DNA of 64,000 bases from Pseudobdellovibrionaceae bacterium (lineage in GTDB: Bacteria > Bdellovibrionota > Bdellovibrionia > Bdellovibrionales > Bdellovibrionaceae), in NCBI GenBank assembly GCA_030158485.1, contig JAOASS010000016.1, positions 97,961 to 161,960 of the forward strand. The letters are read 5' to 3'. Below the pieces are notes generated by a model that searched no databases, was not told where the DNA came from, and saw only the letters and a list, made by a program, of their open reading frames with translations. The position numbers were made by a program, and so were the translations under genes. Below are positions 8,813 to 24,632 of the stretch, piece by piece. The stretch's first letter is position 1. Every line of letters starts with the position of its first letter.

Positions 8813-9817
8813 ATGGATAAAAGAAACGTCACCCTCCTTTTAGTTAATAATGAGTCAGGAACGACCAACAAATTAGTGGTCTCTTTAATTTCTCTCAAAG
8901 TTGTTTTATTCACCTTGGCCGTCGTGATTTTAATTTTTGTTGCAGGATTTATTGATTATTTAGGATTGATGTTTCAAGCAATGGAAAATAAACGTTTAGA
9001 AAATGAAAACGTGATGCTTAAAAAACAATTTCAGATTGTTGAAGGAAAACTAGGAGCACTTGAAAACTCCCTAGAGCGAGTCAAAATTTTTACAAATAAA
9101 TTAAAACTGATCACGAATATTAACATGGAAGATCGTGTGACGAAGTTGACTATGGGTGGAAAGCCGGCGGCGGGGCAGGCTATGGAAGAATATGAGCCGA
9201 TGGATCAAAGAGTTTCAAATGAAAGTATGGTTCAGCAAGACCAAGATTTTCCACGTGAAGAAAAAGTGAATGAGGTCAAGTCAGAAGTTGCGGCGCAACC
9301 ATCTTCCCAAGACTATGCAACACTTGTGATTCGAATCGATAAAGCGGTTAAAGAGACGCAATTAAAAGAACAAAGTGTGATTGAGCTTTGGGAAAGTTTA
9401 AGTGAACGATTATCACTTCTTAATTCAACTCCTAATATTAAACCCGCTCGTGGCTGGATTACGTCTCGATTTGGTTATCGTTTAAATCCATTTACTAATA
9501 AAATGCAGCTGCACGCAGGACTGGATATCGCGGCAGCGCCTGGGTCTCCAGTCTATGCTCCTGCTGATGGTGTTGTGATCTTTGCTTCTTACGATGAGAC
9601 TTATGGTAAGCTTGTTAGCATAGATCATGGTTATGGTGTGACGACTCGATTTGCGCACAATTCCCAAGTTTATGTACGTGTTGGCCAAAAAGTTTCAAAA
9701 TACGATGTGATTTCTTCTGTCGGTAACACCGGACGATCCACGGGCCCTCACTGTCACTATGAAGTGCGAGTGAACGGTATACCAGTTGATCCAATTAACT
9801 TTATTCTAGACGAGTAA
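8813..9817 (+). CDS. M23-family metallopeptidase with an N-terminal TM segment and coiled coil (EnvC/NlpD-like)
   Basis: HAGLDIAA (HxxxD), GSPVYAPADGVV and GNTGRSTGPHCHYEVRVNG (HxH). The N-terminal anchor is followed by a heptad-like region. Confidence 0.85.
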   Translation: MDKRNVTLLLVNNESGTTNKLVVSLISLKVVLFTLAVVILIFVAGFIDYLGLMFQAMENKRLENENVMLKKQFQIVEGKLGALENSLERVKIFTNKLKLITNINMEDRVTKLTMGGKPAAGQAMEEYEPMDQRVSNESMVQQDQDFPREEKVNEVKSEVAAQPSSQDYATLVIRIDKAVKETQLKEQSVIELWESLSERLSLLNSTPNIKPARGWITSRFGYRLNPFTNKMQLHAGLDIAAAPGSPVYAPADGVVIFASYDETYGKLVSIDHGYGVTTRFAHNSQVYVRVGQKVSKYDVISSVGNTGRSTGPHCHYEVRVNGIPVDPINFILDE

Positions 9818-9849
9818 TCAAAATCAGAGTTTTGTAATCTGAATAACAG

Positions 9850-12171
9850 TTATAAATTATCACCGGCTTTAGGTAAGCGGCAACCAATCTCAATCATTTT
9901 TTTTGCAACTAGATTTGCTTGTTCTTGCACGCTCATCATTTTTGGTGCGGGTTTTCTGCTTAAGTCTAAAATAGATTGTTCGATATACGATTTTTGTCTC
10001 AAAGACTGTTTACCACTATAATCAGCTTTACCACGACAGTAACTGATAATTTTAGGATCCACTGAATTATCGAGATAGTCATAAATCATATCGCACATAA
10101 AGTGTGTAGTGCCTAAGTGGTCCAAAGCATCAGAGTAGTCTTTAATCGCTTTTTCTAAATCTATACAGGCTAATTCCCATTGAGGTGAATTAATTGGAAG
10201 GTTTTTCCGATTTAAGATAACCATTTTTGTGGCCATTTCGTAGTCTGCTATAAATTGCTTTTGAGTATCGGCTGAGGTTTTTCCGTAAATTCCTTTACCT
10301 GAATTTGTCAGAGCAAATGATTTACTTAAAATTTCACTTATCGTTTTGTCAAAAGCTCCTCGTGCTCTTGCGAACTGGGTGCGTTTATAATCGAGCCACG
10401 CATAAACAGGAGATTCGCCTGCAAAAAAACCAGGTCGTGGTCCCAGTAAACTTCTTTTTAAATTAGCTGCCGCTTCGGCAAACTCAGATCGATTGTAAAC
10501 ACCGGATCCAGGCTTTGTGAGTTCTTTTAAGACTCTTGCCATTCGATTTGTATTTTCCTGCTCATTTAAAATTTTATCAAATTCGAGTTTCCATTTTCGA
10601 TACTCTTCATTCTGAGAAAGATCATCTTCCATTTTATCTAAGTCTTCGACCATAATATTCGTGGTCTCAGTGATCATGCGGCTAATGTGTTGAACAAAAG
10701 CCATTGTCGTCGCAGCGCAAGCTGAAACTTGTTCACCTGTGGGTTCTTCTGGAAAATTAACAATTCTATTCAGCAAACTTTGAAAAGTTCGAATTAAAAC
10801 TTGAACTTTCTTTTTTAATTTCTCATCTTCTTCTCGCACATTAAGTCGAGGTTGACCATAAGCAGCTTGGAAATCAGTTAAATCAATATTTTTTAAATAA
10901 TTATTTTGTTGATAAGCATTTAAAATTCCTTGCTGAACTGAATTTGGAAAAGAACCTTCATCTTGAGACATCAAAACAATTTGTTTACCTTGAATACAAA
11001 TTAGCAAAGCATTGTTCTGTGCTTCTCTTATTCTTAAATTAACTTCTTCTAAAGCTTCTTTATCAGAGCGCACAGCCGCTTGCAGCCCCCCAATATTGTT
11101 TCTAACGTTCCCACGCACTGTCCACATTGTGTTAAGCAATGTCGATCCGCCTGTTACTTTTAACGCATAAGTGTTTATATTTTCTTTTAGCTGCTTTTCA
11201 AGTTCGGCAAAGCGCCCACTTCTTGCGAGTTGAATATAGCTAATTTTTTTTGCGACTTTAGTGAACTGACATGTGTTTTGTAAAACAGCATTTCTTTGAT
11301 CTGCAATTTCCATTTTAACAGTATTGCTTTGAATCACTTGAGCCATTGTTGAAATTACGTTACTACCAACAACTGTTCCCATAATAGCCCCTTTAACGGC
11401 AAGAGATAAAGCCGGTTGGGTCGCTGTTAAAAGAAGTAAAAATGGAGAAGCTGAGTTTATAACATTATTAAGCTCCAGTGCCACTTTTCCCCACGAAAGA
11501 TTTTTTTTTCCGCAAGCACTTGAAAATGTCGAGACATTTTTAAAAACTTCAGACATACGATCAATACCTGATACAAGTGAGCCCACATTATTTTGTAGCT
11601 GGGAAATATTTGCGTAACCAGCTTGAGGATCTTGAACGTAACCTTGAAGTTGTTCGATAGCTTTTTTAATTTGTTCGCTTGTCTGTTTTACGCTTTCAAT
11701 TTGAGGTTGAGAGCTTTGACATTGATCCGAAACTCCTTGAATTGCATTTGTTAAACTTGAAATGGCAATATTCAAATCTTGGTAAGTGCTATTTTCAAAA
11801 AGTGGGCAGCTGTATTGGCTTGGTACGTTTGCAACTCTAATAGTTGCATCTGCTACTGGATTTTGTAGTCCTAGGCCTGGATTTCTTGGATTAGGATTAT
11901 TTGAAATAGGGGGGTTAAAAAGATCAATCGGACTTGGCGCGCCAGGTGCAAAAGGTGAAACAGGAGTGAATGCCGGTAACTCATCGGTTCCTGTTTCATC
12001 AATCGTTACAGGCCCGTTATTGTTGCCAGACTCAGTGACCTTAGGTGTATCTTTGATATTCGGGAATAAGTCGTTATTTTGCGCTAATGCAGAGCTTTGC
12101 CAACCAAAACTTGATACGAGCAGGGCCGTGGTCAAAATATAAGACGTTACCACCTTTATATTTTTAAACAT
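9850..12171 (-). CDS. Large secreted protein of unknown function (paralog A of the 785-aa pair)
   Basis: Start moved to the ATG at 12171 (GAGGA RBS), giving the signal peptide MFKNIKVVTSYILTTALLVSSFGWQSSALA. A Pro-rich linker and conserved Cys pairs follow. The hydrophobic segment SWGKVALELNNVINSASPFLLLLTATQPALSLAVKGAIMGTVVG is bracketed by Cys. I recognise no known domain. Confidence 0.75.
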   Translation of the reverse strand: MFKNIKVVTSYILTTALLVSSFGWQSSALAQNNDLFPNIKDTPKVTESGNNNGPVTIDETGTDELPAFTPVSPFAPGAPSPIDLFNPPISNNPNPRNPGLGLQNPVADATIRVANVPSQYSCPLFENSTYQDLNIAISSLTNAIQGVSDQCQSSQPQIESVKQTSEQIKKAIEQLQGYVQDPQAGYANISQLQNNVGSLVSGIDRMSEVFKNVSTFSSACGKKNLSWGKVALELNNVINSASPFLLLLTATQPALSLAVKGAIMGTVVGSNVISTMAQVIQSNTVKMEIADQRNAVLQNTCQFTKVAKKISYIQLARSGRFAELEKQLKENINTYALKVTGGSTLLNTMWTVRGNVRNNIGGLQAAVRSDKEALEEVNLRIREAQNNALLICIQGKQIVLMSQDEGSFPNSVQQGILNAYQQNNYLKNIDLTDFQAAYGQPRLNVREEDEKLKKKVQVLIRTFQSLLNRIVNFPEEPTGEQVSACAATTMAFVQHISRMITETTNIMVEDLDKMEDDLSQNEEYRKWKLEFDKILNEQENTNRMARVLKELTKPGSGVYNRSEFAEAAANLKRSLLGPRPGFFAGESPVYAWLDYKRTQFARARGAFDKTISEILSKSFALTNSGKGIYGKTSADTQKQFIADYEMATKMVILNRKNLPINSPQWELACIDLEKAIKDYSDALDHLGTTHFMCDMIYDYLDNSVDPKIISYCRGKADYSGKQSLRQKSYIEQSILDLSRKPAPKMMSVQEQANLVAKKMIEIGCRLPKAGDNL

Positions 12172-12539
12172 ATTTTCCTCTTCTTTACGGGAAGCTTGAG
12201 CTTCCATTTTCAAGTTGGACTGAAATTTTTTAATCCATTCGGGATTAAAAATATCTGTCAGTCTGCTTTCCAGACCCTGTTATATTTACATCTTAACGAA
12301 ATTCAAAAATGCGCTAAATCCCTGAAATCTCAAGTTAGTTAATTTGGATATCAAGGTCAGAAAAGGGTATTGCAAATTAGTGGCCTAGTTGTCTCAAATC
12401 GATACGGTGTTAAGTTGACATACGATCTGCGAAAACTTGGGGACAGATGGGCTGAACTCGCTTTAAATGAATGCTATAACTTGAATATCAGATTTGAGCA
12501 CGAGATCTTGGCAAGGAATTTGAAGCTTCAATAAGTAAG

Positions 12540-13196
12540 ATGAAGCGAGTCCTCTTTTTTCATTTATTAGTAGTAAGTTTGGCTTTTGCAAAACAAGATT
12601 TTGTAGAATTTCAGAATATAAATTCACGCGTTCTAGCTCAAGTTCAAAATTATCGAAAAATTCCTCGTAAAAATAAAAAATCATCTTTTAAAAAGTATCA
12701 ATCAATTCGATCCACGAAATACAAAGGTTACAAAGTAACTCAAATTCCTCAGTACGAAATTCCACCATTATTAACACGAGAAGATTTAAATAAAATAATT
12801 CCCTCTCATGTATCGGCAAAAGATCCTTCATCTGTCGTTCTCAGAAAAATGGGCGATAAAGCTATCGGAGTTTGGTTGAAGTCTTCTTCAATGCAGAAGA
12901 TGACAATTGTACAAGCTGCTCAAAAAGTTGAACAAGCTATGAAAGCTGAAATCAATTTGGCCCCCGAAGACTCTGAAATTAAGCACAAACTTAATTTTCA
13001 AGTTGAAGCGTTTCAGGCGACTTCTAAAGTAGATTACACGGGTTTTGTTGATGCATCAGTCAGCTATAATATGCGAGATCAAAAAGCTGGATATGAAGTT
13101 CGTCGCAAAGTTTTACGAAATAAAGATTTGTTTGTAAATCACTCTGAAACTAAAAATGAAAACTTAAGCTCTGTTGGGTTGAAGTGGTCTTTTTAG
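12540..13196 (+). CDS. Secreted/outer-membrane hypothetical protein
   Basis: Signal peptide MKRVLFFHLLVVSLAFA. The C-terminus GLKWSF ends in an aromatic residue (OMP-like). No domain recognised. Confidence 0.55.
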   Translation: MKRVLFFHLLVVSLAFAKQDFVEFQNINSRVLAQVQNYRKIPRKNKKSSFKKYQSIRSTKYKGYKVTQIPQYEIPPLLTREDLNKIIPSHVSAKDPSSVVLRKMGDKAIGVWLKSSSMQKMTIVQAAQKVEQAMKAEINLAPEDSEIKHKLNFQVEAFQATSKVDYTGFVDASVSYNMRDQKAGYEVRRKVLRNKDLFVNHSETKNENLSSVGLKWSF

Positions 13197-13210
13197 AAAA
13201 ATCTAGAAGA

Positions 13211-14470
13211 TTATATTTTTACTTTTGATCCAATATCTTTGCGATACTGCAGCCCAGAGCTGTTAATTTGGCTTGCCAGATTGTAAGCTTCGGTCAATGC
13301 AGACTTAAGTGTTGATCCAATTCCAACACAACCTAAGACCCTGCCACCATTTGTGTAATACTGTCCCTCAATTTTTTTTGTACTAGCATGAATCATCCAT
13401 TGGCTTGGGTTTTCAAGATCAAGTGGGCCGTGAATCAGAATTCCTTTTTTTGGAGATTCTGGGTATCCTTCTGCTGCCATAATGATACAGGCAGAAGAAA
13501 TATTTTTAATTTTGAAGGGCATTAACTTACCTTTTGCAAGATCACAAAAAAGTTGGGCTGTATCAGTATCAATTAAAGGCAGGATGACTTGAGTTTCGGG
13601 GTCACCCAAGCGAGTGTTGTATTCAATGACATGTGGCCCTTCAGCTGTGATCATGATTCCAACAAAAATGATGCCTCGATAAAGAAAATTCCGATTTTTC
13701 ATTTGGTTTAAAGTGGGCTCAATAATTCTTGATTGAATTTTTTCATTCCAATCTGTTGGAATTAAAAGAGGGGCAACAGTTCCCATTCCACCCGTATTTG
13801 GTCCTTCGTCATGGTCCATAAGTCTTTTGTGGTCTTGTGCAATTGGAAGTGAAATGTACTTATTTCCATCAGTCAAAACTGTGTAACTGAGTTCAAATCC
13901 TGGCATAAATTGTTCTAAAACAGCACGTTGCCCTGCAGAACCAAAAATTTTTTTTTCGAAAAAATCATGAGCCACTTTTTGTAAGTCTTTAAGATTTTTG
14001 CAAATAGAAACCCCTTTTCCCGCACAAAGGCCATCGGCTTTGAGTACATAAGGAGGAGTAAACTCTTTGCTTGCTTCAAGGGTTTGCTCGACTGAATCGA
14101 CGATTCTAAAGTGAGCAGTTGGTATTCCCGCTTCTTGCATAAAAATTTTAGCAAAAATTTTTGAACCTTCAAGTTGAGCCGCTTCTTGATCGGGTCCAAT
14201 ACAGTGAATCCCTCGTGTTCTTAAGAAATCAGTCAATCCTAATACAAGTGGGTCTTCGGGACCAATGAAGACAAAATCAATTGCGTGGTTTGTACAAAAT
14301 GTCACAACTGTTTCAAAATTTTTCCATGAAATATCGGGATAGCAAAGTGCTTCTTTCGCCATCCCATCGTTACCGGGGATGACATGAATTTCAGTTACAA
14401 GGGGGCTTAAGCGGAATGATTTAATAAGAGCGTGTTCTCGTCCACCAGAGCCCACTACTAGAATCTTCAT
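13211..14470 (-). CDS. purD: Phosphoribosylamine-glycine ligase
   Basis: MKILVVGSGGREHAL at the N-terminus, ATP-grasp core, the EYNTRLGDPE motif, and a length of 419 aa. Confidence 0.95.
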   Translation of the reverse strand: MKILVVGSGGREHALIKSFRLSPLVTEIHVIPGNDGMAKEALCYPDISWKNFETVVTFCTNHAIDFVFIGPEDPLVLGLTDFLRTRGIHCIGPDQEAAQLEGSKIFAKIFMQEAGIPTAHFRIVDSVEQTLEASKEFTPPYVLKADGLCAGKGVSICKNLKDLQKVAHDFFEKKIFGSAGQRAVLEQFMPGFELSYTVLTDGNKYISLPIAQDHKRLMDHDEGPNTGGMGTVAPLLIPTDWNEKIQSRIIEPTLNQMKNRNFLYRGIIFVGIMITAEGPHVIEYNTRLGDPETQVILPLIDTDTAQLFCDLAKGKLMPFKIKNISSACIIMAAEGYPESPKKGILIHGPLDLENPSQWMIHASTKKIEGQYYTNGGRVLGCVGIGSTLKSALTEAYNLASQINSSGLQYRKDIGSKVKI

Positions 14471-15768
14471 TTCAAAGATCCTTTTAATTCTTTCAAAATT
14501 TTTTCAGCTTCTACAAAAGACTCGGGAGCGACATAAAGTCGGTCAATAACACGAGTGCCTTCATATTTTTGAAAAATTTCTGTTGTTCTTTCTATTTGAG
14601 TCGGCTTGACCCACGGGTCGTACTGGTCAACAACAAACATGGGGAAAGTTTTATGCTCAGTTGACGAATGGTATTTTGATAATCGAATGCGAGATGAAGC
14701 CCAGATAACTTCGACACCTTTTTTTTCAATTTCGGATTTCAAAATTTCGGGTCTTAGTTCATCGGCCACGTTATGCATTTCAATTAAGACTTTATAAGGA
14801 GTTCTTGCTGCAATTCTTTTGGCCCAAGAATTTTCGACGCTCGCTAAGTGTTCATACAGTTTGTAGTCATTGTACTGAGTATAAGCTTGAATGTCTGAAG
14901 GCAAAAAGAAACGACAATCTTTTGAAGTCAGATATCGATTGAGCATTTCTTCGTAAATAATACTTTTATGATGGAAATAAACCATCAAATGCATATGGTG
15001 CCGAGAAATCAAAAAATCATCGAATGAATAAAGAGCTCTGCGGTTCATAGCAAGATAGGCTTTATTGTCGACTAAATGCAGTGTGAGATTCTGAATCAAC
15101 CACTCCATATCGATCTTTCCATAATTTGTACCGCAGAAATAGGAATCACGCTCAAGATAATCCATGCGATCAACATCAAGTTCAGAGCTAATAAGCTGGG
15201 ATAGAATGGGTCTGAAGTCTATTCCTTGATCAGAAAAAAAATCGTCTCTTTCAGGAAGATTTTTATCAATCAAGCAGGCGACATAATAAGGATCGATGTC
15301 ATTGAATTTTGATTTGATCGTGTCGGCAATTGAAGATTCTGTGACGTATTTAATTGTGTAATCTTCATGATTGGATTGTCGTTCTTTAGTTTTTCCGTAA
15401 GCTTTCACTTTTAGTTCGGCAAGTGGCGGCATTACTTCTTCGGTTGTGTGACTAAGTGGGCCATGGCCCACATCGTGTAGCAGTGCTGCTAATCGAAATG
15501 TTTGACGGAAGCGAAGCTTAACAGAATTTTTAGAAAAAGGATATGCACCAAATATAGAATCAAATGCTAAAGCGGCCAGATGCCCCACTCCGATTGAATG
15601 TAAGTAGCGATTGTGTGTGGCTCCTGGAAAGCTAAATTCAGAAAATCCAAGTTGTTTGATTGACCTGAGGCGCTGATATTCCGGTGTATCCAATACCGCC
15701 ACTTCCGCATTCGAATAATGAATAGAACCATGCACCGGATCTCTAATTTCCATAGGTGACTGGTACAT
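14467..15768 (-). CDS. HD-domain phosphohydrolase (COG1078 / SAMHD1-EF1143-like putative dNTP triphosphohydrolase)
   Basis: IRDPVHGSI..., RLRSIKQLG, THNRYLHSIGVGHLA, LLHDVGHGPLSH and DVDRMDYLERDS. The stop overlaps the purD start (ATGA). Confidence 0.75.
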   Translation of the reverse strand: MYQSPMEIRDPVHGSIHYSNAEVAVLDTPEYQRLRSIKQLGFSEFSFPGATHNRYLHSIGVGHLAALAFDSIFGAYPFSKNSVKLRFRQTFRLAALLHDVGHGPLSHTTEEVMPPLAELKVKAYGKTKERQSNHEDYTIKYVTESSIADTIKSKFNDIDPYYVACLIDKNLPERDDFFSDQGIDFRPILSQLISSELDVDRMDYLERDSYFCGTNYGKIDMEWLIQNLTLHLVDNKAYLAMNRRALYSFDDFLISRHHMHLMVYFHHKSIIYEEMLNRYLTSKDCRFFLPSDIQAYTQYNDYKLYEHLASVENSWAKRIAARTPYKVLIEMHNVADELRPEILKSEIEKKGVEVIWASSRIRLSKYHSSTEHKTFPMFVVDQYDPWVKPTQIERTTEIFQKYEGTRVIDRLYVAPESFVEAEKILKELKGSLK

Positions 15769-15822
15769 GAGGCGTGACGATGCGTCAAGAATCTTGTCGG
15801 TGATGGCTTTTGAAGAAGTGTG

Positions 15823-16452
15823 TCATGGTTTATTCTCTTCTGATAGACGCTTTTCAATTCGAGTCTGTTCTCCAGTAAAGCCAGACTTTTCACTTTCGGC
15901 ATGACTGAGGCAAGGTGATATTGCGGAAAAGTCTTTGTTATTTTTTATCATAGCACATTTGGTTCTGAAGTAAGTCATATCCAGGTCTTGCTCTGTTATT
16001 CCATCCAGCCCATGAATGCATTTTACGGCAGATTCATTTGATTTTTCATTTTTGTTTTCTAAATAACGAGCGCAGATATTTGCAAAATCGTTTATTAAAT
16101 TTGAGTTCAAACATTTGAAGACCCAAGCAACACTATTTGATGCAACCAGATTTTCACAAATTTCAGCTTGTTTTTGAGAAGCAAGTGTTGGTGACTTGTC
16201 TGCTATTGTCTCAAGACAGTTCATTGAATTTTCAGGTCCCATTTTTTTATGAACTTCAAAGCAAACAGAAAGAAATTCTTTGCGAAAAATTTTATCTTTA
16301 ATAAATTCATGACATTGAGGTTGATCAACTTTGGCACGCTTAGCGCAAAGTTTGGGTGCGCTATCGCTTAAGAAATTTAAACTCAGATTTGAAAGCTGAA
16401 ATGCATATGAAAATTGAGATAGTGAAATGAAACTTATAAAAATTTTCTTCAT
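15823..16452 (-). CDS. Cysteine-rich secreted hypothetical protein
   Basis: Signal peptide MKKIFISFISLSQFSYA and about 11 Cys spread over a 190-aa mature protein. No domain recognised. Confidence 0.55.
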   Translation of the reverse strand: MKKIFISFISLSQFSYAFQLSNLSLNFLSDSAPKLCAKRAKVDQPQCHEFIKDKIFRKEFLSVCFEVHKKMGPENSMNCLETIADKSPTLASQKQAEICENLVASNSVAWVFKCLNSNLINDFANICARYLENKNEKSNESAVKCIHGLDGITEQDLDMTYFRTKCAMIKNNKDFSAISPCLSHAESEKSGFTGEQTRIEKRLSEENKP

Positions 16453-16614
16453 TTATAAAGCTTAATACTAAACTCAATCCACGAAACTTTAATTTATGAT
16501 TTTCTCTAATATGTAAACTCAGCTGAAATATAAAGCGCCGTCACGCTTCATGTTCCTGTCATCTCCAGACTTTAGACTAATTTTTGGCGTTGGCCCTTTA
16601 GGTGTATCAGGATG

Positions 16615-16622
16615 AGCCGATG
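16615..16622 (+). promoter_or_regulatory. Possible sigma-28 (FliA) -10 element GCCGATGA upstream of flagellin 1
   Basis: GCCGATGA matches the consensus GCCGATAA at 7 of 8 positions and lies 93 nt upstream of the fliC ATG. The -35 position 15 nt upstream reads TTTA rather than TAAA, so the match is only partial. Confidence 0.4.
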
Positions 16623-16714
16623 AGTATTCAAAGGCAGAATACCCAGCCTAGGAATTCATAATGAATTCCCCAGTTTCATGGAATGAAACTGAGATCTTCA
16701 AGGAGGAGGAAACA

Positions 16715-17560
16715 ATGGGATTGCGTATTAATACCAATACCGCTTCGTTAAATGCACAGAAGGTTCTGTGGGGAACGAAGATTGGACTCGATAAAAGTAT
16801 GGAAAAGCTAGCATCTGGCTTCCGTATTAATCGAGCCGGAGACGACGCTGCAGGCTTGGCGATCTCTGAAAACTTAAAAGCCCAAATCCGAGGTCTTAAA
16901 CAGGCTTCTCGAAATGCTCAGGACGGTATCTCACTAGTCCAAGTGGCAGAGGGATCGATGAACGAAATCTCGTCTATCCTGATCAGACTTCGAGAGTTGT
17001 CAGTTCAAGCCGCTTCAGACACGATTGGTCCAGTCGAGCGTCAGTTCCTCAATGTGGAATATGATCAGCTTGTATCAGAGATTGACCGCGTTGCAGAAGG
17101 TACAGAGTTCAACGGAACTCAACTTCTTGCTGGAGTTGGATCTATCTTGGATTTCCAAGTAGGCACTCGAAATAATCCTGAAATTGACCGAATTTCTTTC
17201 GACGCTTCAAAAGCAGACGCAAACTCAGCGGCATTGGGAGTTAACCTCACAAGTGTAGCAGATAAAGCTTCAGCTCAGAATGCCTTGTCAGCTATCGATA
17301 CAGCGATTGTATCCGTATCTGCGATGCGAGCCGATTTCGGTGCGATTCAAAATCGATTGCAATCTACGGTTTCAAATTTATCTGTGAGCATGGAAAACAT
17401 GTCAGCAGCTAATTCTCGAATCAGAGATGTCGATGTAGCTGAAGAAACAAGTGAGATGATGAGAAATAATATCTTACTTCAGGCAGGCACATCAGTATTA
17501 GCCCAAGCGAATCAGCAAGCAAACGTAGCACTTGGACTCTTGAACAAATCATTCGCCTAA
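16715..17560 (+). CDS. fliC: Flagellin (short form, about 281 aa)
   Basis: MGLRINTNTASLNAQ..., LASGFRINRAGDDAAGLAISE, and the C-terminal MSAANSRIRDVDVAEETSEMMRNNILLQAGTSVLAQANQ. ATG at 16715 is preceded by AAGGAGGAGGA. Confidence 0.95.
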   Translation: MGLRINTNTASLNAQKVLWGTKIGLDKSMEKLASGFRINRAGDDAAGLAISENLKAQIRGLKQASRNAQDGISLVQVAEGSMNEISSILIRLRELSVQAASDTIGPVERQFLNVEYDQLVSEIDRVAEGTEFNGTQLLAGVGSILDFQVGTRNNPEIDRISFDASKADANSAALGVNLTSVADKASAQNALSAIDTAIVSVSAMRADFGAIQNRLQSTVSNLSVSMENMSAANSRIRDVDVAEETSEMMRNNILLQAGTSVLAQANQQANVALGLLNKSFA

Positions 17561-17638
17561 GAAACGAGATGAATGATTCCGGGTTTTGATTTCACTTACC
17601 CCCCGAGAAGCCTCGTTGAAAAACGATTGTGCTCAGAG

Positions 17639-17797
17639 GTTGAGTCTGAATTTGTTTGAACAGTTTTGTTCAACGGATAACTCAACTTGTAAAAATTGAG
17701 GGGTACTTCTTAGTTGAAGTACCGACCGGCGAAAGCCGGGCCCTGACCCTAATAGTTTCCTGCGACGTTCCCTCCGCCCTTAGGGGTGGGGGTGAAC
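17639..17797 (+). ncRNA. Block of four tandem stable hairpins (candidate structured 3'UTR or small RNA)
   Basis: Nested stem GTTGAGT (17639-45) / ACTCAAC (17680-86) encloses TTGAACA-gttt-TGTTCAA. GGTACTTC-ttagtt-GAAGTACC lies at 17702-17723. CCGGC-GAAA-GCCGG (GNRA loop) lies at 17726-17739. A 9-bp stem CCCTCCGCCC-ttag-GGGTGGGGG needs G-U pairs that exist only in the + strand RNA. Confidence 0.3.
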
Positions 17798-17848
17798 AAT
17801 TATAAATCCAGACTTGAGCCGTGTTTTGAATGACGGCATCATTATGAC

Positions 17849-18517
17849 ATGCGAATTAATGCGCTTGTTTCTATCTTATTTTTATCAGCTTGTGCTCACA
17901 AAGAAACTTTTCAAAAAAGTCCAGTACCGAAAGCGATTCCTCCTCATCCTTGTTTTACGGCGGCGGCTCAGGGTGACGTCAATTTTATTCAAAAAAATTT
18001 AGAAGTTTGTAAGATCATGAAAAGTGAATCGGGGACAAGCCCATTCATGTTAGCGGCAGCCAGAGGACAAGACCAAGTTCTTCATTTTATGATTTTAAAC
18101 GGTGTCGATGTAAATGAAACAGATTCAACATTTGCCACAGCTTTGAACTACGCAGTTGTAGCTCATCATGTGAGTACGGTTGGACTACTTATTTTATCAG
18201 GTGCTGATTTGGAAGCGAAACATTCAGATGGAATAACGGTTTTGATGCTTGCAATCCAGCAGAGTAGTCCTGAAATGGTGAGGACCTTGACTACGACACG
18301 TCAGGCAATCAATTCAAAAGCTGAAGATGGGTGGACTGCATTATACTTTGCTATTCGTCGGGAAGATCCACGAATTTTATCTCTTTTATTAAGGCAGGGA
18401 GCTTGTAAAAATACCATCGATTCATACAAGCAAAGCCCACTTGATTTTGCGAAAGAAATTAAATGGGAACAAGGAGTCTTGATACTTGAACAAGCTCCTG
18501 CTTGCGGAAAAAGTTAG
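17849..18517 (+). CDS. Ankyrin-repeat lipoprotein
   Basis: Lipobox MRINALVSILFLSAC. At least four ANK-like repeats are present (TSPFMLAAARGQDQVLHFMILNGVDVN; ATALNYAVVAHHVSTVGLLILSGADLE; ITVLMLAIQQSSPEMV; WTALYFAIRREDPRILSLLLRQGA). Confidence 0.8.
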   Translation: MRINALVSILFLSACAHKETFQKSPVPKAIPPHPCFTAAAQGDVNFIQKNLEVCKIMKSESGTSPFMLAAARGQDQVLHFMILNGVDVNETDSTFATALNYAVVAHHVSTVGLLILSGADLEAKHSDGITVLMLAIQQSSPEMVRTLTTTRQAINSKAEDGWTALYFAIRREDPRILSLLLRQGACKNTIDSYKQSPLDFAKEIKWEQGVLILEQAPACGKS

Positions 18518-18759
18518 ATCGAGCTGGACTTTTATCCACAATATTGTCCACGTTTCTGTCAGTCCTGACGAAAAAATTTTCACTAATTTATAAACTAGAC
18601 TCAAGTCATCGGAAAGAATTCCCGAACTGACACATAGAGACCGAATATCGTCAGTTGGTGACGGTATTCAGGTTTCAAATAACCAGCTCCACGGATTGGA
18701 GCTGTTGGCCAAGGTAGGCCGCTAATCAGGAGGATGAGTGAAGAAACAAGGAGGATAAA

Positions 18760-19593
18760 ATGGGGATGCGTATATCGACTAACGTCGCCGCTCTCAATGC
18801 ACAGAAAAATCTGTACATGACGAACATCAATGCCAATAAATCGATGGCAAGGTTAGCGTCAGGTTTCAGAATAAATCAAGCAGCTGACGATGCTGCAGGT
18901 CTTGCGATTTCGGAAAACCTAAAAGGTCAAATCCGGGGTCTCAGGCAGGCGAATCGAAATGCTAACGATGGTATTTCACTCGTGCAAATTGCTGAAGGCA
19001 GTTTGAATGAAGTGTCGAATATGTTGATTCGCCTGAGGGAGCTTGGCGTACAAGCGGCTTCAGATACAATCGGCGATACAGAAAGACAATTTCTGGACAC
19101 AGAATATCAGCAATTAAAATCAGAAATTCAACGGGTTACTGAAAGCACTCAGTACAATGGTTACGACTTACTAAATGGAACTGGTGGAGTACTTGATATT
19201 CAAGTGGGTGTTAATAATGATCCATTTAAAGATCGTATTTCATTTAATGCCGGTGCTGCGAATTCAACTTTAGAAGCGTTGGGAATCGTTGCGGAATCAT
19301 TAGGAACAAAAGAGAGCGCTCAGCAATCTCTTTCGGCTCTTGATATTGCGATGACCAGTGTGAATTCAATCCGCGCGAACTTCGGCGCCATGCAAAATCG
19401 TTTACAATCAACAAGTAACAACTTGCTGATCTACGATGAAAACATGTCTGCTGCAAATTCTCGAATTCGCGATACGGACGTAGCAGCCGAAACTTCTGAA
19501 ATGATTCGCAATAATATTCTCATGCAGGCTGGCGTATCAATTCTGGGGCAAGCAAACCAACAATCTCAGTTAGCCCTCAAGCTACTCGGATAA
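18760..19593 (+). CDS. fliC: Flagellin (short form, 277 aa)
   Basis: MGMRISTNVAALNAQ, LASGFRINQAADDAAGLAISE and the C-terminal MSAANSRIRDTDVAAETSEMIRNNILMQAG. By eye, roughly two-thirds identical to the first flagellin. AAGGAGGA RBS. Confidence 0.95.
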   Translation: MGMRISTNVAALNAQKNLYMTNINANKSMARLASGFRINQAADDAAGLAISENLKGQIRGLRQANRNANDGISLVQIAEGSLNEVSNMLIRLRELGVQAASDTIGDTERQFLDTEYQQLKSEIQRVTESTQYNGYDLLNGTGGVLDIQVGVNNDPFKDRISFNAGAANSTLEALGIVAESLGTKESAQQSLSALDIAMTSVNSIRANFGAMQNRLQSTSNNLLIYDENMSAANSRIRDTDVAAETSEMIRNNILMQAGVSILGQANQQSQLALKLLG

Positions 19594-19798
19594 AATAAAA
19601 GGCACCCACTTACTTACCAGTAGGCGGCGAGTCATAAGGTAAGTGACGTTTTCATCACTTACTGGAAACCGGCGCTGATATTAAGTGAGGCACTGAGTTA
19701 TAAACATAAGAATGTGGAGTTAAGACTTCATTTTCAATTTGAAACTTAGCGAATACTTCGCAAGACTTTCCTTTATTAAGTAAACTTGAGGGAAAATC

Positions 19799-22153
19799 AT
19801 GGCGCAGTATTCATCAAAAAGCCTGAGTGTAGCATGTATGATGTTTGGAAGATTTTTGGCCTACGTTATGGGCCTTGTCCTCCTTGGATCTTCCGCATCT
19901 TCCACGGCTCAGGCTTTTGGCTTCAACGATCCAGAACTATCAAAACAGGAATCTACTCAAATCATAAAACTACTTGATACATTTTCAAGTGGCTGCACTT
20001 TGACACGAGGCCCTTCTGCAGATGCAATTTCAGTCGTCCAAGGCTTAGCTTCAACGATTCGAGCTTCTTTGGAAAACCCTGCATGTAAAAGTCTTGCGGG
20101 TGTTGCGACTTCACTTGATTCTGCAACATTTCAAGCTCAAGGATTAATTCCTAGAGCCAATGATTCTTACGTGAATGATCTTGAACAAAGAGTCAATTCA
20201 CTCGAAAAACAAAAACAAGAGATTACGATTTTACTGACCCAGACAACGAGTCCAGCTGAAATTTCAATTTTAAGATCGCAACTTTATTCAATTCGCATAG
20301 AACTTGCGGGAAGTTTAAGCGAAGCTCGAGATACAGCCTTGAATGATCAGCAAATTCGGCGCTCACAAGCTCTGCGAATATTATTAAGTTCAACAAATCA
20401 AGCAGTGAATCAAGTTTTAGCCAATGAAACATGCTGGGTTGGCCAACCAGGAGTTCTGCAGCAAGTAGCCGGTGTCGGAACAATTTTAAGTGGAAGTGCC
20501 GCTTTGATGACTCCAGCATCGCAAACGGCCGTGCTTTTGACATCAGGAATGTCGATTATATCGACATTGGTTGATTTTTTCGAAAGACTCTCTATCGCCA
20601 AAAAAGTAGCCCAATTTGATTTAGCTTTGGGCTCGACTGCATTGACCTGTGCGCTTGAAAAAATGAATGATGTTTATTGTTCGGCACAAGATACTTTAAA
20701 CGCCATTAAAAAAGTAGGACCTAAACTGCATGATCCAAAAGAAGATCCAGTTTGGAGCGGTCTAGGACTTTTAGAAAAAGATATTCCGATACTATTAAGT
20801 TGGTTACAAAAAATTAAATCTGGTGGCGGCGCGAATACAACTGAAGATGCAGAAAAAAAAGCCGCAATCGAACTTCAAGAAGTGAAGTTGAATAATTCTA
20901 AAACACTTTACGAAGGATTTTCAAGGGATGCTCAGCTTCGTTATGACCAAACAATTGACCCTGAACAAAAGTTTTCTGTTCTTCGAAATATGGTAGGTGG
21001 ATTTGGCTCAAGAATCTGTGCCTCAAGCTCTACGGGAATTGATTATTCGAATCCTATTTGTACGACATTGTCTTTTGAATTTATGTTTTACTACTTACTA
21101 GGCTTAGATTCCATCGATTACCAAAGTTTAAAAAAAATAAATAATAACCTTAGCTTTAGTTCGGTCGATTTAGCTCTTATTAGAGGCTCTGGAATTATGA
21201 AAGAATTGAGCTTAAGAGTAACAAATCAAAGGTTTCAGTCCCTCTACAATTTAGCAAAAGATGCTTTTGAAATTGAAAAAAGATTGTCTCTTGGCCAGGA
21301 TTTGACTCTTATTTTTGACGAAGCTTTGAAAAGAAATTACCGGATTTCAAACCCGGTGACGGCACAAAGCGCATTAGAAGATCTTATTGCTTTTTTAAGA
21401 ACGGGTGGCGAACGTCAGCAGCCAGATCCACAGCGAGGACTTCGGGAGCAAGTTCTATCGAGTATAACGGAAGTGCTAAATCAAATTTTGAGCGTAGCGC
21501 AGGGGCAAGTAACGCCAGAAACAGCGAAAGATGAAATCTTCAAAGCAGCTGAGCTTAAAATTGGAACTTCATTCTTAGGCGATCGCTTGGAAAGATTAAT
21601 ACGTCTTGATTTAGAACAACTTGTTTATGATTCTGATAAAATAGATGATGTGACTCGCTTACCGCTTCTAGCAGCAAGTGATGCGATAGCTGAACTGAGA
21701 AGATTTTATCAAGTCAGTAGTTTACAAGAAATGCAAGAATCTGCCAGTAACGCGCAACTTTTGATGAACAAAACTTTAGACCCCTTTATTCGACTTTTTG
21801 CGACACCTATGCTTCGGTCTTTAGATGAGTTTGATTCAGTTGCAAAAAAAGTGGGTGGCGACGGAGCTGCTCAAGCGATTGCCCTGAAAACAAAAATGTG
21901 TTTTTACTTTTTGGGCTCAATTAAGCCACAAGATTTCTTTTTAAAAGAGTGTCAGGGTTTAATCGCTAAATCAGTTTTAGGTTTAGAAACGCCGGCCTTT
22001 GATAAAGAACTATTTCAGAATCCTCTTCAAAGTCGAGCCTGTATTTACCGTAACTTTATTATGAAAAATAGAATTAAAGAAAGACAAAGCCAAGCTTTTC
22101 GATATCCTGGTTTTGATGTCCTGCTTAAAAAATTAAATCAGAAAGTAATGTAG
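19799..22153 (+). CDS. Large secreted protein of unknown function (paralog B of the 785-aa pair)
   Basis: Signal-like N-terminus MMFGRFLAYVMGLVLLGSSASSTAQA. A Cys pair is spaced 30 aa apart. The hydrophobic segment CWVGQPGVLQQVAGVGTILSGSAALMTPASQTAVLLTSGMSIISTLV is bracketed by Cys. The C-terminal region has a cluster of 3 Cys. No known domain recognised. Confidence 0.75.
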   Translation: MAQYSSKSLSVACMMFGRFLAYVMGLVLLGSSASSTAQAFGFNDPELSKQESTQIIKLLDTFSSGCTLTRGPSADAISVVQGLASTIRASLENPACKSLAGVATSLDSATFQAQGLIPRANDSYVNDLEQRVNSLEKQKQEITILLTQTTSPAEISILRSQLYSIRIELAGSLSEARDTALNDQQIRRSQALRILLSSTNQAVNQVLANETCWVGQPGVLQQVAGVGTILSGSAALMTPASQTAVLLTSGMSIISTLVDFFERLSIAKKVAQFDLALGSTALTCALEKMNDVYCSAQDTLNAIKKVGPKLHDPKEDPVWSGLGLLEKDIPILLSWLQKIKSGGGANTTEDAEKKAAIELQEVKLNNSKTLYEGFSRDAQLRYDQTIDPEQKFSVLRNMVGGFGSRICASSSTGIDYSNPICTTLSFEFMFYYLLGLDSIDYQSLKKINNNLSFSSVDLALIRGSGIMKELSLRVTNQRFQSLYNLAKDAFEIEKRLSLGQDLTLIFDEALKRNYRISNPVTAQSALEDLIAFLRTGGERQQPDPQRGLREQVLSSITEVLNQILSVAQGQVTPETAKDEIFKAAELKIGTSFLGDRLERLIRLDLEQLVYDSDKIDDVTRLPLLAASDAIAELRRFYQVSSLQEMQESASNAQLLMNKTLDPFIRLFATPMLRSLDEFDSVAKKVGGDGAAQAIALKTKMCFYFLGSIKPQDFFLKECQGLIAKSVLGLETPAFDKELFQNPLQSRACIYRNFIMKNRIKERQSQAFRYPGFDVLLKKLNQKVM

Positions 22154-22167
22154 TCTAGCAGAATCCA

Positions 22168-22941
22168 TCAGGACTCATTAATGGAAGTTGAAATTTCAGA
22201 CCAAAGCTGAGGACTTAGAAGTTCGCTTCCAATCAGAAGAACAGGCTCTTGATCTTTTGCTTTTCCTTTTTTGGCTTCGGATGGAAGGAAGCCAGATCCA
22301 CCATATGTTTCAAGCCACTCTTTTCTAATCATAAGGGAGTTCGACACCAGAACATTTTCGTGTGAAGGTCGATCTTTTGGCTGAATACGATTGAATTCAA
22401 AGGTACTAAAAACATCTAAATTTCTTTCGCCCTCAATTTTATCCAAGCGTTGGTAACCAATTTCAATTAAATGTTTATACTTTTGTCGGCCTGGTGATTT
22501 AGAAGAGAAAATCAGATCGAGATCGCCAGAAAGAAAATAAGACTCAAGTTCCGACAGGTCGTAAATATCAAGAGTCACTTTTTTAATACCGACTTTTGAA
22601 AAACAGACTTCAGCCATTTTCATAGCAAAACTAGCAAGTCCTTCAAGTGTGCCGATATGAAGTTCCGCGACCATTTCGTTTTTTGAAACTGTTAGAAGCT
22701 CTAATTCCAAACGTCGTTGCATTTTTCCATAAATTTCAGAAACCTGATTTGCAATTGGTGTCCAGCCTGATTTTCTTTTGGCCGATCGATCTAGCAAAAC
22801 GATTTGCAATTCATTTTCAATTTTTGCAATGATTCGTGATAGTTGAGGTTGGCTTAACCCGACATGTAATGCAGCAGCTGATAAATTTTTATGATGGATA
22901 GCTTTAGCTAAAATACTCAGTTCGTAGTGAATGGCGTGCAT
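22168..22941 (-). CDS. LysR-family transcriptional regulator (short, 257 aa)
   Basis: N-terminal wHTH LSILAKAIHHKNLSAAALHVGLSQPQLSRIIAKIENELQIVLLDR. Confidence 0.75.
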   Translation of the reverse strand: MHAIHYELSILAKAIHHKNLSAAALHVGLSQPQLSRIIAKIENELQIVLLDRSAKRKSGWTPIANQVSEIYGKMQRRLELELLTVSKNEMVAELHIGTLEGLASFAMKMAEVCFSKVGIKKVTLDIYDLSELESYFLSGDLDLIFSSKSPGRQKYKHLIEIGYQRLDKIEGERNLDVFSTFEFNRIQPKDRPSHENVLVSNSLMIRKEWLETYGGSGFLPSEAKKGKAKDQEPVLLIGSELLSPQLWSEISTSINES

Positions 22942-22958
22942 TAAAGGCCCTCAAGCTT

Positions 22959-24632
22959 TTACGGTTTACGAATATAATGGTAAAATCCAACAAGACCCAG
23001 GACTCCTGCCATTGAATATAAAATCAGGCTTAAAATAGGCATTTGGTGAATAGGGTCTTGAGTTGTATGTTGAGCAATCATTGAAGCACTGATAATGAGC
23101 GAAGCCGTTACGATCCCTAAAAATAAGAGACTAAAAGAATTTTCTAAGCTTCGCTTGAGTTCATCCATGTTTTGAAGATTTAATTTGAATGCATGCTGGG
23201 GGCTGTTTGCTTTTCGTATCAGCATTGAAAACTGTCTAGGTAGTGAGTTAATCAAATGCCGAGATTCCCGAAATATTTGAGACATATCGCTAGCCATTTT
23301 AGTTGGATCAATTTGTTTTTTGATCATTTCGCTAGAAAATTCGATGGCAATAGCGAGGGGCTCAAATTGCGGGTTAATTTTTCTTCCTAAGCCCTCTATG
23401 GCTACAAGGGATTTGAAAAACATCATCAATTCAGTCGGAACAGCCAAACCATGTCGAGTTGCAATAGATGAAGAGCTCATCAGCAAACGTCCCATATTAA
23501 CATTTTTCAAAGTCAGACCGTAGTAAGGAGCAATTAATTCTCGAAGCTCTTTTGCAAAAAGATCCACATTCACTTGATCAGTAAAAGGAGCCAAATCAAC
23601 ATATTCATATGCTAAACGTTCGTAATCTTCTTTAGCCAAGGCTAACAACTGACTTGCAACAACAGTTTGAGTCCTAGAATTAAGCCTTCCAACAACGCCG
23701 AAATCGACAAGGCCGATTCGATTATCTGGATAAATAAAGAAATTTCCCGCGTGAAGATCTCCGTGAAAAAGTCCGTCAGTAAAAACCATTTTTAGATAAA
23801 TTTGAAGTGCTTTTTTAACGACTTCTTCTTTGTTAACCCCGGATTGCTGCAGTGAAGTTTCTTGACTGAGAGGAATTCCTTTTAAGAATTCTAGAACTAA
23901 AATTCTTTCGGTTGTTAAGTCTAAGTAAACTTTTGGAATAACAACTGCGGAATCATTTTTAAAGTTTTGTTGAAATCGACGGATATTATTAGCCTCAACA
24001 ATAAAGTCAGTTTCAAGTTCAAGCGTTTTAAAGAATTCATCAACAATTGCAATTGGTGAAAAAGGTCTTGTTTCCGGTACATACTTGTGAAGAAGTTCAG
24101 CTAGCATATAAAGAACATTCAAATCATCATCGATTGTCTTAATAATTCCAGGTCGCTGAATTTTGATCACAACATCGTCACCAGTTTTTAAGCGAGCTTT
24201 GTGAACTTGGGCGATACTGGCCGATCCTAAAACATTCGGATCAATACTTTCGAAAATTTCATCACAGCGTTGACCGTATTCGATTTTAAGAATTTCTTTG
24301 ATGGTGTCAAAAGGTAAAGGTTGAACACGGTCATGCAGTTGACTGAATTCTTCTAAATACTCGGTTGGAACAAGATCGGGGCGAGTCGCTAAAACTTGAC
24401 CGAGTTTAACAAAAGTCGGTCCCAATTCTTCAAAAGCCATTCGGACTCGTTGTGGAGCTGAGTAGCGCTCCATATCGGTACCGATAAAGCGCTCGATTAG
24501 AAATCGGCCGAGTTTAATTCTTTCTGCAACATTAGAAAATCCGTGTTTGGCAAAAACACTGACGATGGTTTTGAGTCTACCGGCGTTTTGGAGGGTTCTT
24601 CGAAGCGGATTTCTTTTGAGCTCCAGAGCCAT
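22959..24632 (-). CDS. ABC1/UbiB-family atypical protein kinase
   Basis: FEELGPTFVKLGQ, GSASIAQVHKA, KIQRPGI and HGDLHAGNF, with C-terminal TM helices. Start moved to the ATG at 24632 (MALELKRNPLRR); the longer ORF would run deep into rnr. Confidence 0.8.
   Translation of the reverse strand: MALELKRNPLRRTLQNAGRLKTIVSVFAKHGFSNVAERIKLGRFLIERFIGTDMERYSAPQRVRMAFEELGPTFVKLGQVLATRPDLVPTEYLEEFSQLHDRVQPLPFDTIKEILKIEYGQRCDEIFESIDPNVLGSASIAQVHKARLKTGDDVVIKIQRPGIIKTIDDDLNVLYMLAELLHKYVPETRPFSPIAIVDEFFKTLELETDFIVEANNIRRFQQNFKNDSAVVIPKVYLDLTTERILVLEFLKGIPLSQETSLQQSGVNKEEVVKKALQIYLKMVFTDGLFHGDLHAGNFFIYPDNRIGLVDFGVVGRLNSRTQTVVASQLLALAKEDYERLAYEYVDLAPFTDQVNVDLFAKELRELIAPYYGLTLKNVNMGRLLMSSSSIATRHGLAVPTELMMFFKSLVAIEGLGRKINPQFEPLAIAIEFSSEMIKKQIDPTKMASDMSQIFRESRHLINSLPRQFSMLIRKANSPQHAFKLNLQNMDELKRSLENSFSLLFLGIVTASLIISASMIAQHTTQDPIHQMPILSLILYSMAGVLGLVGFYHYIRKP

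Follow-up and report, generated by a model that had tools for sequence, protein, structure and literature searches.

Genes A and B, which lie on either side of a flagellin locus in a 64,000-nucleotide stretch of a Pseudobdellovibrionaceae bacterium genome (contig JAOASS010000016.1; hereafter the window), encode exported-looking proteins of similar length, each with ten conserved cysteines. The explanation that we tentatively favour as a whole is that they represent two separate uncharacterised families, and form neither a demonstrable pair of paralogs nor a flagellar module. What looks like a pair of paralogs on the two sides of a flagellin island would thus come down to two independent orphan genes and regional synteny. 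The earlier note on this DNA had proposed just such a pair, duplicated, diverged and placed in mirror orientation around the locus; its description of the two proteins was largely borne out by the analysis, whereas the kinship and the module were not.

Of the two orphan families, A is the more interesting. Few membrane-acting proteins are known from the predatory Bdellovibrionales, which must breach and reseal prey membranes. Family A, together with a small neighbouring gene, offers a concrete and testable candidate: it is widespread in the order, exported-looking and unusually fast-evolving on a fixed ten-cysteine scaffold, and it carries an uncharged hairpin.

Shared layout and the question of kinship

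Both reading frames named earlier are present on opposite strands and point outward (Table 1). The longest open reading frame (ORF) of A runs from a TTG codon (9850..12213, minus strand) and gives the 787 amino acids first reported. The ATG at 12171 is preceded by a GAGGA ribosome-binding site and coincides with the conserved M1 of the family alignment, and A is therefore a protein of 773 amino acids. The start codon of B, which gives 784 amino acids, is kept in close relatives.

Table 1. Coordinates of genes A and B, their parts and adjacent elements in the window.
Feature	Position	Strand	Evidence
Gene A, exported-looking all-helical protein, 773 aa, 10 conserved Cys	9850..12171	-	ORF, ribosome-binding site, conserved M1, AF2 model
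A residues 1-30, signal-peptide-like N-terminus (K-rich n-region, hydrophobic core, ALA-QN)	12082..12171	-	by inspection
A residues 31-116, Pro/Gly/Asn-rich linker, predicted disordered	11824..12081	-	pLDDT 25-31, no secondary structure
A residues 122-151, first Cys pair, C-x28-C around one helix	11719..11808	-	both Cys 99% conserved
A residues 220-301, invariant C220/C301 around an almost charge-free two-helix hairpin	11269..11514	-	column statistics, 150 sequences
A residues 669-764, C-terminal cluster of four conserved Cys (669/693/712/764)	9880..10167	-	family alignment
218-aa secreted-looking protein, divergent from A	12540..13196	+	homologs beside A; without Pfam, NCBIfam or PHROG match
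Conserved block of ~100 nt 5' of B, with CGAATAnTTCG palindrome	19696..19798	+	alignment of seven fliC-to-B spacers
Gene B, exported-looking all-helical protein, 784 aa, 10 invariant mature Cys	19799..22153	+	ORF, homologs, AF2 model
B residues 1-38, signal-peptide-like N-terminus (AQA-FG)	19799..19912	+	by inspection
B residues 66-96, first Cys pair, C-x29-C	19994..20086	+	family alignment
B residues 212-284, invariant C212/C284 around a 48-residue uncharged two-helix hairpin	20432..20650	+	family alignment, AF2
B residues 701-748, C-terminal cluster of three invariant Cys (701/718/748)	21899..22042	+	family alignment

The two families differ greatly in size. An exhaustive profile search for A, clustered at 50% identity, gave 208 representatives, 118 of them at E ≤1e-30. 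Those with a taxon label all belong to Bdellovibrio, Bdellovibrionaceae or Pseudobdellovibrionaceae, and A is thus, judged by its labelled members only, part of a large Bdellovibrionales family. Family B is small, with 21 clusters at 90% identity, and enlarging it by profile search and by scans of genomes and metagenomes added only about four Bdellovibrio-type copies at 34% identity. Its labelled members are likewise all from the Bdellovibrionales.

The features pointed out in the two proteins are real ones and conserved within each family. Both begin with a Sec-type N-terminus, as far as inspection can tell; the hydrophobic N-terminus is retained throughout family A (150-sequence alignment), and in B the lowest insertion-energy window of the whole protein falls there. 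In A a short conserved DLFPNI motif precedes the proline-rich linker, in which P37 is conserved. The early cysteine pairs are indeed 29 (A) and 30 (B) residues apart, the cysteine-bracketed hydrophobic segments proposed earlier correspond exactly to C220–C301 and C212–C284, and the C-terminal clusters hold four and three cysteines. All ten mature cysteines of A are at least 97% conserved over the 150 sequences, many of which are less than 30% identical to the protein in the window, and all ten of B are invariant across its family. AlphaFold2 (AF2) predicted all-alpha folds for both, from about residue 117 in A (mean predicted local distance difference test, pLDDT, 67.7; predicted template-modelling score, pTM, 0.54); for B the values were pLDDT 74.9 and pTM 0.51.

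The bracketed segments hold uncharged hairpins of about 45 residues, conserved and predicted to be helical in both families. The core of the A hairpin comprises residues 237–280 (nt 11332–11463), where the alignment columns are almost without charge except at the apex; P243 is present in 100% of sequences and G265 in 90%, while apex column 260 holds Pro or Lys. In the window this gives uncharged runs of 26 and 25 residues with K260 between them, and the modelled helices span residues 227–251 and 253–282. The B hairpin is one uncharged run of 48 residues with helices at 217–237 and 240–267; across the family its core (213–258) lacks charge except at a polar apex (239–243), columns 242 and 243 being charged in 43–48% of sequences.

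As the earlier note supposed, neither protein contains a recognisable domain in Pfam, NCBIfam, PHROGs, the PDB sequences or the Foldseek searches. Pfam and NCBIfam returned only sub-threshold coiled-coil noise, the best being a SpiroCoCo domain, whose 16.8 bits compare with a cut-off of 125 bits, and single scans of 50 diverse A members revealed no recurrent family. One phage tail-protein match from PHROGs (E 0.007) covered a coiled-coil stretch, and PDB sequence profiles gave nothing below E 0.03 for either protein. Foldseek found no match at E ≤0.001 in the PDB (both models) or BFVD (B only), with query-normalised TM scores of at most 0.16, and the PDB match lists of both models were generic and non-significant.

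The alignment of A with B that had been made by eye proved no better than chance by BLASTP, profile hidden Markov models (HMMs) or profile–profile scoring. Direct BLASTP gave E 0.9, and hmmsearch, run both ways, yielded bit scores of 4.3 or less. The hhalign probability was 0.17% with shallow profiles (23 and 17 sequences) and 0.88% with a 150-sequence A profile drawn from the exhaustive search, compared with the limit of about 50% below which the earlier note itself regarded its proposal as refuted. Profiles of 12 A subfamilies reached at most 2.1% against B, and neither these nor the 208 A representatives contained an intermediate sequence. At the sequence level, then, A and B are not demonstrable paralogs.

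The best local hhalign alignment is nevertheless collinear, pairing C122 with C66, C151 with C96, hairpin with hairpin and C301 with C284. Against this, the reversed B profile outscored the real one (38.8 versus 25.5), and B profiles shuffled in 40-column blocks scored 23–31, so that the real value lies inside or below the null. Such shuffles leave local motifs intact, and segment tests were therefore added. In these, A115–156 matched B64–100 best and A225–310 matched B218–292 best, the reciprocal searches agreeing; compared with column shuffles in which the cysteines were held fixed, the collinear segments exceeded all but one or two of 150 in three tests and all but nine of 150 in the fourth. 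However, the control segments A157–224 and A311–410 did just as well against these shuffles, although the parts of B that they matched were not collinear. Amphipathic helices thus pass this null too easily, and cysteine spacing and composition explain the collinear matches. For this reason they were rejected as evidence of kinship.

The alternative that A and B are true paralogs of great age, sharing one fold at least in an N-terminal module (Cys1, helix, Cys2, long helices, Cys3, hairpin and a helix with Cys4) and diverged beyond the reach of sequence methods, is a credible possibility that we do not prefer. It would account for the common lineage, the near-equal size, the ten conserved cysteines in each protein, the almost identical spacing of the first pair, the bracketing of the hairpin in both and the reciprocal collinear matches. 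The predicted helices after the hairpin are also of similar lengths (28, 20, 40 and 14 residues in A; 31, 25, 36 and 20 in B), and in both models the next cysteine lies on the fourth of them. Distant A members occupy other contexts, and family A may thus already have duplicated. As to the cysteine framework, the first pair and the hairpin-bracketing pair correspond, but cysteines 5–10 (392, 485, 669, 693, 712 and 764 in A; 294, 407, 421, 701, 718 and 748 in B) do not align, and the C-terminal 450 residues are without signal. Beyond the low full-profile probabilities, the lack of intermediates and the higher score of the reversed profile, the segments reach at most 12%, and the equal success of the control segments indicates that helical periodicity alone yields such scores.

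Genomic neighbourhoods and the flagellin locus

The claim that A and B flank the flagellin island holds for their outward orientation but is loose in the case of A. This gene is located 4.5 kb from the first flagellin gene, on the strand opposite to fliC and transcribed away from it, with four genes between: those of the 218-amino-acid secreted protein, purD, an HD-domain protein and a 209-amino-acid protein with ten cysteines. PurD and the HD-domain protein do not belong to flagellar families, and the other two are without Pfam match.

The constant neighbours of A are different ones, which speaks against a module built around the flagellins. A fixed order, consisting of the small secreted protein (divergent), A, an M23 peptidase (convergent), PP2C and a TonB-like protein, was seen in the window, in Bdellovibrio sp. 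22V (locus L001), in L014 (partially), in L018 and L019 and in the P0013 contig (JGI). Homologs of the small protein adjoin A in L001, L014, L018 and L019 at 31–56% identity, and a 215-amino-acid gene fills its slot in P0013. When L018 and L019 were compared with the window, A was 23–26% identical and its small neighbour 31–33%, whereas the values were 69–72% for M23, 61% for PP2C, 48–50% for TonB and about 90% for the flagellins. With A at 23–26% while other neighbours stand at 48–92%, A and its small secreted partner are, by sequence identity, the fastest-evolving genes of an otherwise conserved block. The small protein may be a functional partner of A.

It was also observed that the 218-amino-acid protein ends in ...GLKWSF and is divergent from A in 6/6 syntenic loci; in the three more distant of these it is 31–35% identical, compared with 48–92% for other neighbours. 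Distant members of family A (P0190, P0196) occupy unrelated genomic contexts. Two candidate counterparts in B. bacteriovorus HD100 were set aside: Bd0412–0420, approached through locus tags near fliC, form a gliding/TonB-like cluster and not A or B, and Bd0611/0612 are fliD/fliS. For Bd0400–0405 no relevant paper was found in the literature, and the HD100 ortholog was not identified there.

In one clade, six loci (L006, L007, L009, L012, L013 and L014) have gene B directly 3' of the second flagellin gene; in L003, L004 and L016 it lies elsewhere, so that its adjacency to fliC is confined to that clade. Relatives at 58–63% identity adjoin PTPS, FeoAB and PS-decarboxylase genes, away from any flagellin gene, and the copy of Bdellovibrio sp. 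HCB337 has a third context, beside an MCP gene and a DUF3465 gene. Bdellovibrio sp. 22V keeps the fliC–fliC locus without B, a 123-amino-acid ORF standing at the equivalent position. From this distribution, B is an accessory gene of a small and patchily distributed family. A 724-amino-acid Pfam-less protein beside the HCB337 copy was examined and found to be an unrelated repeat lipoprotein. In L004 (12388–18471), the B homolog is followed directly, on the same strand, by a 2,027-amino-acid alpha-2-macroglobulin-like protein (MG2/A2M/bMG10).

The sequence immediately after the fliC stop codon varies among the seven fliC-to-B spacers aligned, while the block directly upstream of B is common to the window, L006, L007 and L009, though not to the clade at 59% identity. 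This conserved block is a sequence that may be a promoter, operator or leader. Its conservation, set beside the variable sequence that precedes it, suggests that B is transcribed independently of fliC, from a promoter or leader of its own. Besides the palindrome, the block holds GTTATAAACA.

These arrangements make it very improbable that A and B are flagellar accessory proteins, for instance of the membrane sheath, placed around the flagellin genes for that reason. Such a role would fit the six related loci in which B comes straight after the second flagellin gene, the proximity of A to flagellin genes (within about 5–7 kb) in L001, L018 and P0013, and the fact that Bdellovibrio flagella are sheathed. 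It is contradicted by the B relatives in flagellin-free surroundings and the third context in HCB337, by the fliC–fliC locus of strain 22V that does without B, by the upstream block of B itself and by the four non-flagellar genes between A and fliC. In L019, furthermore, the A neighbourhood is kept with no flagellin gene in the 8 kb upstream, and neither protein belongs to a known flagellar family in Pfam or NCBIfam. Judged from gene order, the link to the flagellins is one of regional synteny and not of a module.

The uncharged hairpin and candidate functions

Both proteins fit the type of Sec-exported, disulfide-bonded envelope proteins, with predicted n-, h- and c-regions, AXA sites and an even number of conserved cysteines. 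Their hairpins are rich in small residues (Gly, Ala, Ser and Thr make up 43–48% of each) and only moderately hydrophobic: Kyte–Doolittle means over 19 residues are at most 1.5–1.6, and by a simple, crude and position-independent sum on the Hessa scale the best 19-residue window has a median of 5.1 kcal/mol in 150 A sequences and 4.8 kcal/mol in 21 B sequences, whereas their signal peptides come to about +1 to +4 kcal/mol. By this sum of about +5, the segments are not hydrophobic enough for Sec-mediated integration.

With modest confidence, we prefer to read the hairpin as a membrane-active element. A and B would cross the inner membrane via Sec as soluble chains and pass SecYEG, since hairpins of about +5 kcal/mol would be too polar for stop-transfer. 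In the periplasm, some five disulfides would staple each protein, which would fold into a helical bundle shielding the hairpin. Exposing or inserting the hairpin would then allow them to act at a membrane, either the outer membrane of the predator or the envelope of the prey, in a manner resembling alpha-helical pore formers and translocators. This reading is preferred because the abundance of small residues, the polar or proline-containing apex, the bracketing cysteines and the low confidence of this part of the A model (pLDDT 52–64, the lowest within the folded region) recall the hairpins of pore formers. The fast divergence of A on a fixed cysteine scaffold would fit a surface-exposed or prey-facing role.

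Colicin pore domains, the Bcl-2 family and the diphtheria toxin T domain are soluble all-alpha bundles; in each, an uncharged helical hairpin some 40 residues long, polar at its apex, can insert into a membrane. Like the colicin domain, A (237–280) and B (213–258) have two-helix uncharged hairpins that are predicted to be flanked by charged amphipathic helices. Unlike it, they are three to four times larger, have ten conserved cysteines and a Sec-type signal, and their hairpins contain more Gly, Ala, Ser, Thr and Pro. No Pfam match to this domain was found at E ≤1 and no PDB sequence match either, and the Foldseek comparison with colicin Ia (1cii) yielded E 0.22 at a TM of 0.09.

The ClyA, Hbl, Nhe, AhlB and YaxAB toxins, in which an elongated helical bundle carries a hydrophobic head that becomes embedded in the membrane, are exported by Gram-negative bacteria. 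Among them only AhlB turned up in the fold searches, and without significance (E 1.0–1.7, probability 0.04–0.06); none was found through Pfam or NCBIfam, and in contrast to the tripartite systems no partner genes of that style adjoin A or B. The translocators of type III secretion systems (T3SS; IpaB, YopB and SipB) are similar in size (~600–800 amino acids) and consist largely of helices or coiled coils, two hydrophobic helices forming a central pair. They lack a Sec signal and conserved disulfides and are encoded beside chaperones within T3SS loci; A and B differ from them in their Sec-type N-termini, their ten conserved cysteines and the absence of T3SS-type neighbours and of any sequence match.

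The main rival to the membrane-active reading is that A and B are purely structural or scaffold proteins of the periplasm or outer membrane, whose hairpin is a permanently buried core and never inserts. We consider this possible but somewhat doubtful. It would agree with the moderate hydrophobicity of the hairpins, with the housekeeping envelope genes that neighbour A (M23 peptidase, PP2C and the TonB/TolA-like protein) and with the lack of a toxin-like fold in Foldseek. Buried cores, however, are usually the most confident part of a model, whereas the A hairpin is the least confident within the folded region; the conserved P243, P253 and P/K260 within it, in addition to the many small residues, would be odd for a simple core, as would the divergence of A relative to its neighbours for a housekeeping scaffold.

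A second alternative makes the hairpin a permanent transmembrane anchor in the inner membrane of the predator, with both large helical domains in the periplasm. With two uncharged helices of about 17–22 residues joined by a short polar apex, the chain would come back to the side of the membrane from which it entered, in keeping with periplasmic oxidation of the cysteines on both flanks. This is unlikely given the insertion energies, which at about +5 kcal/mol exceed those of the two signal peptides, and the several prolines in the first helix of the A hairpin.

Several considerations weigh against our own account. The uncharged hairpin could be the plain buried core of a large helical bundle, and the membrane mechanism is drawn from features of the sequence only, the signal peptides having been judged by eye. 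None of the matches of the predicted models to pore-former folds is significant, neither that of colicin Ia nor that of AhlB (E ~1). As both models are of middling quality (pTM 0.51–0.54), the negative fold searches are themselves weak evidence. Finally, A and B could share an ancient origin even though no sequence homology is detected between them.

In its most far-reaching form, which we regard as improbable, the proposal would make A and B the founders of a protein class specific to the Bdellovibrionales, alpha-helical, locked by disulfides and able to insert into membranes. The predator would export these proteins and use them on the envelope of its prey, for instance by opening, fusing or resealing membranes as it enters. 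A redox or contact trigger would free the cysteine-bracketed hairpin, the rapid divergence of A would reflect an arms race with prey surfaces, and the constant small neighbour would serve as partner or chaperone.

Other features around the locus

Divergent from the first flagellin gene, the 209-amino-acid protein (15823–16452, minus strand) has a signal-like N-terminus and ten cysteines; it is without match in Pfam, NCBIfam or PHROGs, and a 210-amino-acid ORF occupies its slot in L006. The first flagellin ORF (16661–17560, plus strand) comprises 299 amino acids from the ATG at 16661. A second ATG at 16715, preceded by AAGGAGGAGG, would give a flagellin of 281 amino acids, the same as the homologs of 281–282 amino acids in L001, L006 and L007. 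Upstream, at 16616–16623, GCCGATGA is a candidate sigma-28-like −10 element.

Between the flagellin genes of L006 (6886–9020), L007 (1304–3442) and the P0013 contig lie genes for an ankyrin protein, an M10 metallopeptidase and a protein of 172–175 amino acids, with further ORFs in L006. The window holds only the ankyrin gene in this interval (17849–18760), and its island is therefore a shortened version. Two stem-loops, CACCCACT...AGTAGGCG and GTAAGTGA...TCACTTAC, follow right after the second flagellin stop codon (19603–19667, plus strand), neither of them preceding a run of T on that strand, and an Rfam scan of 9000–23000 gave no RNA family at E ≤0.1.

Beyond B, a UbiB/ABC1-kinase ORF (22959–24767, minus strand; 602 amino acids from TTG) overlaps the RNase R ORF (24577–26760, minus strand) by 191 nt. 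Since the homologs of this kinase are 533–557 amino acids long, its true start probably lies further downstream.

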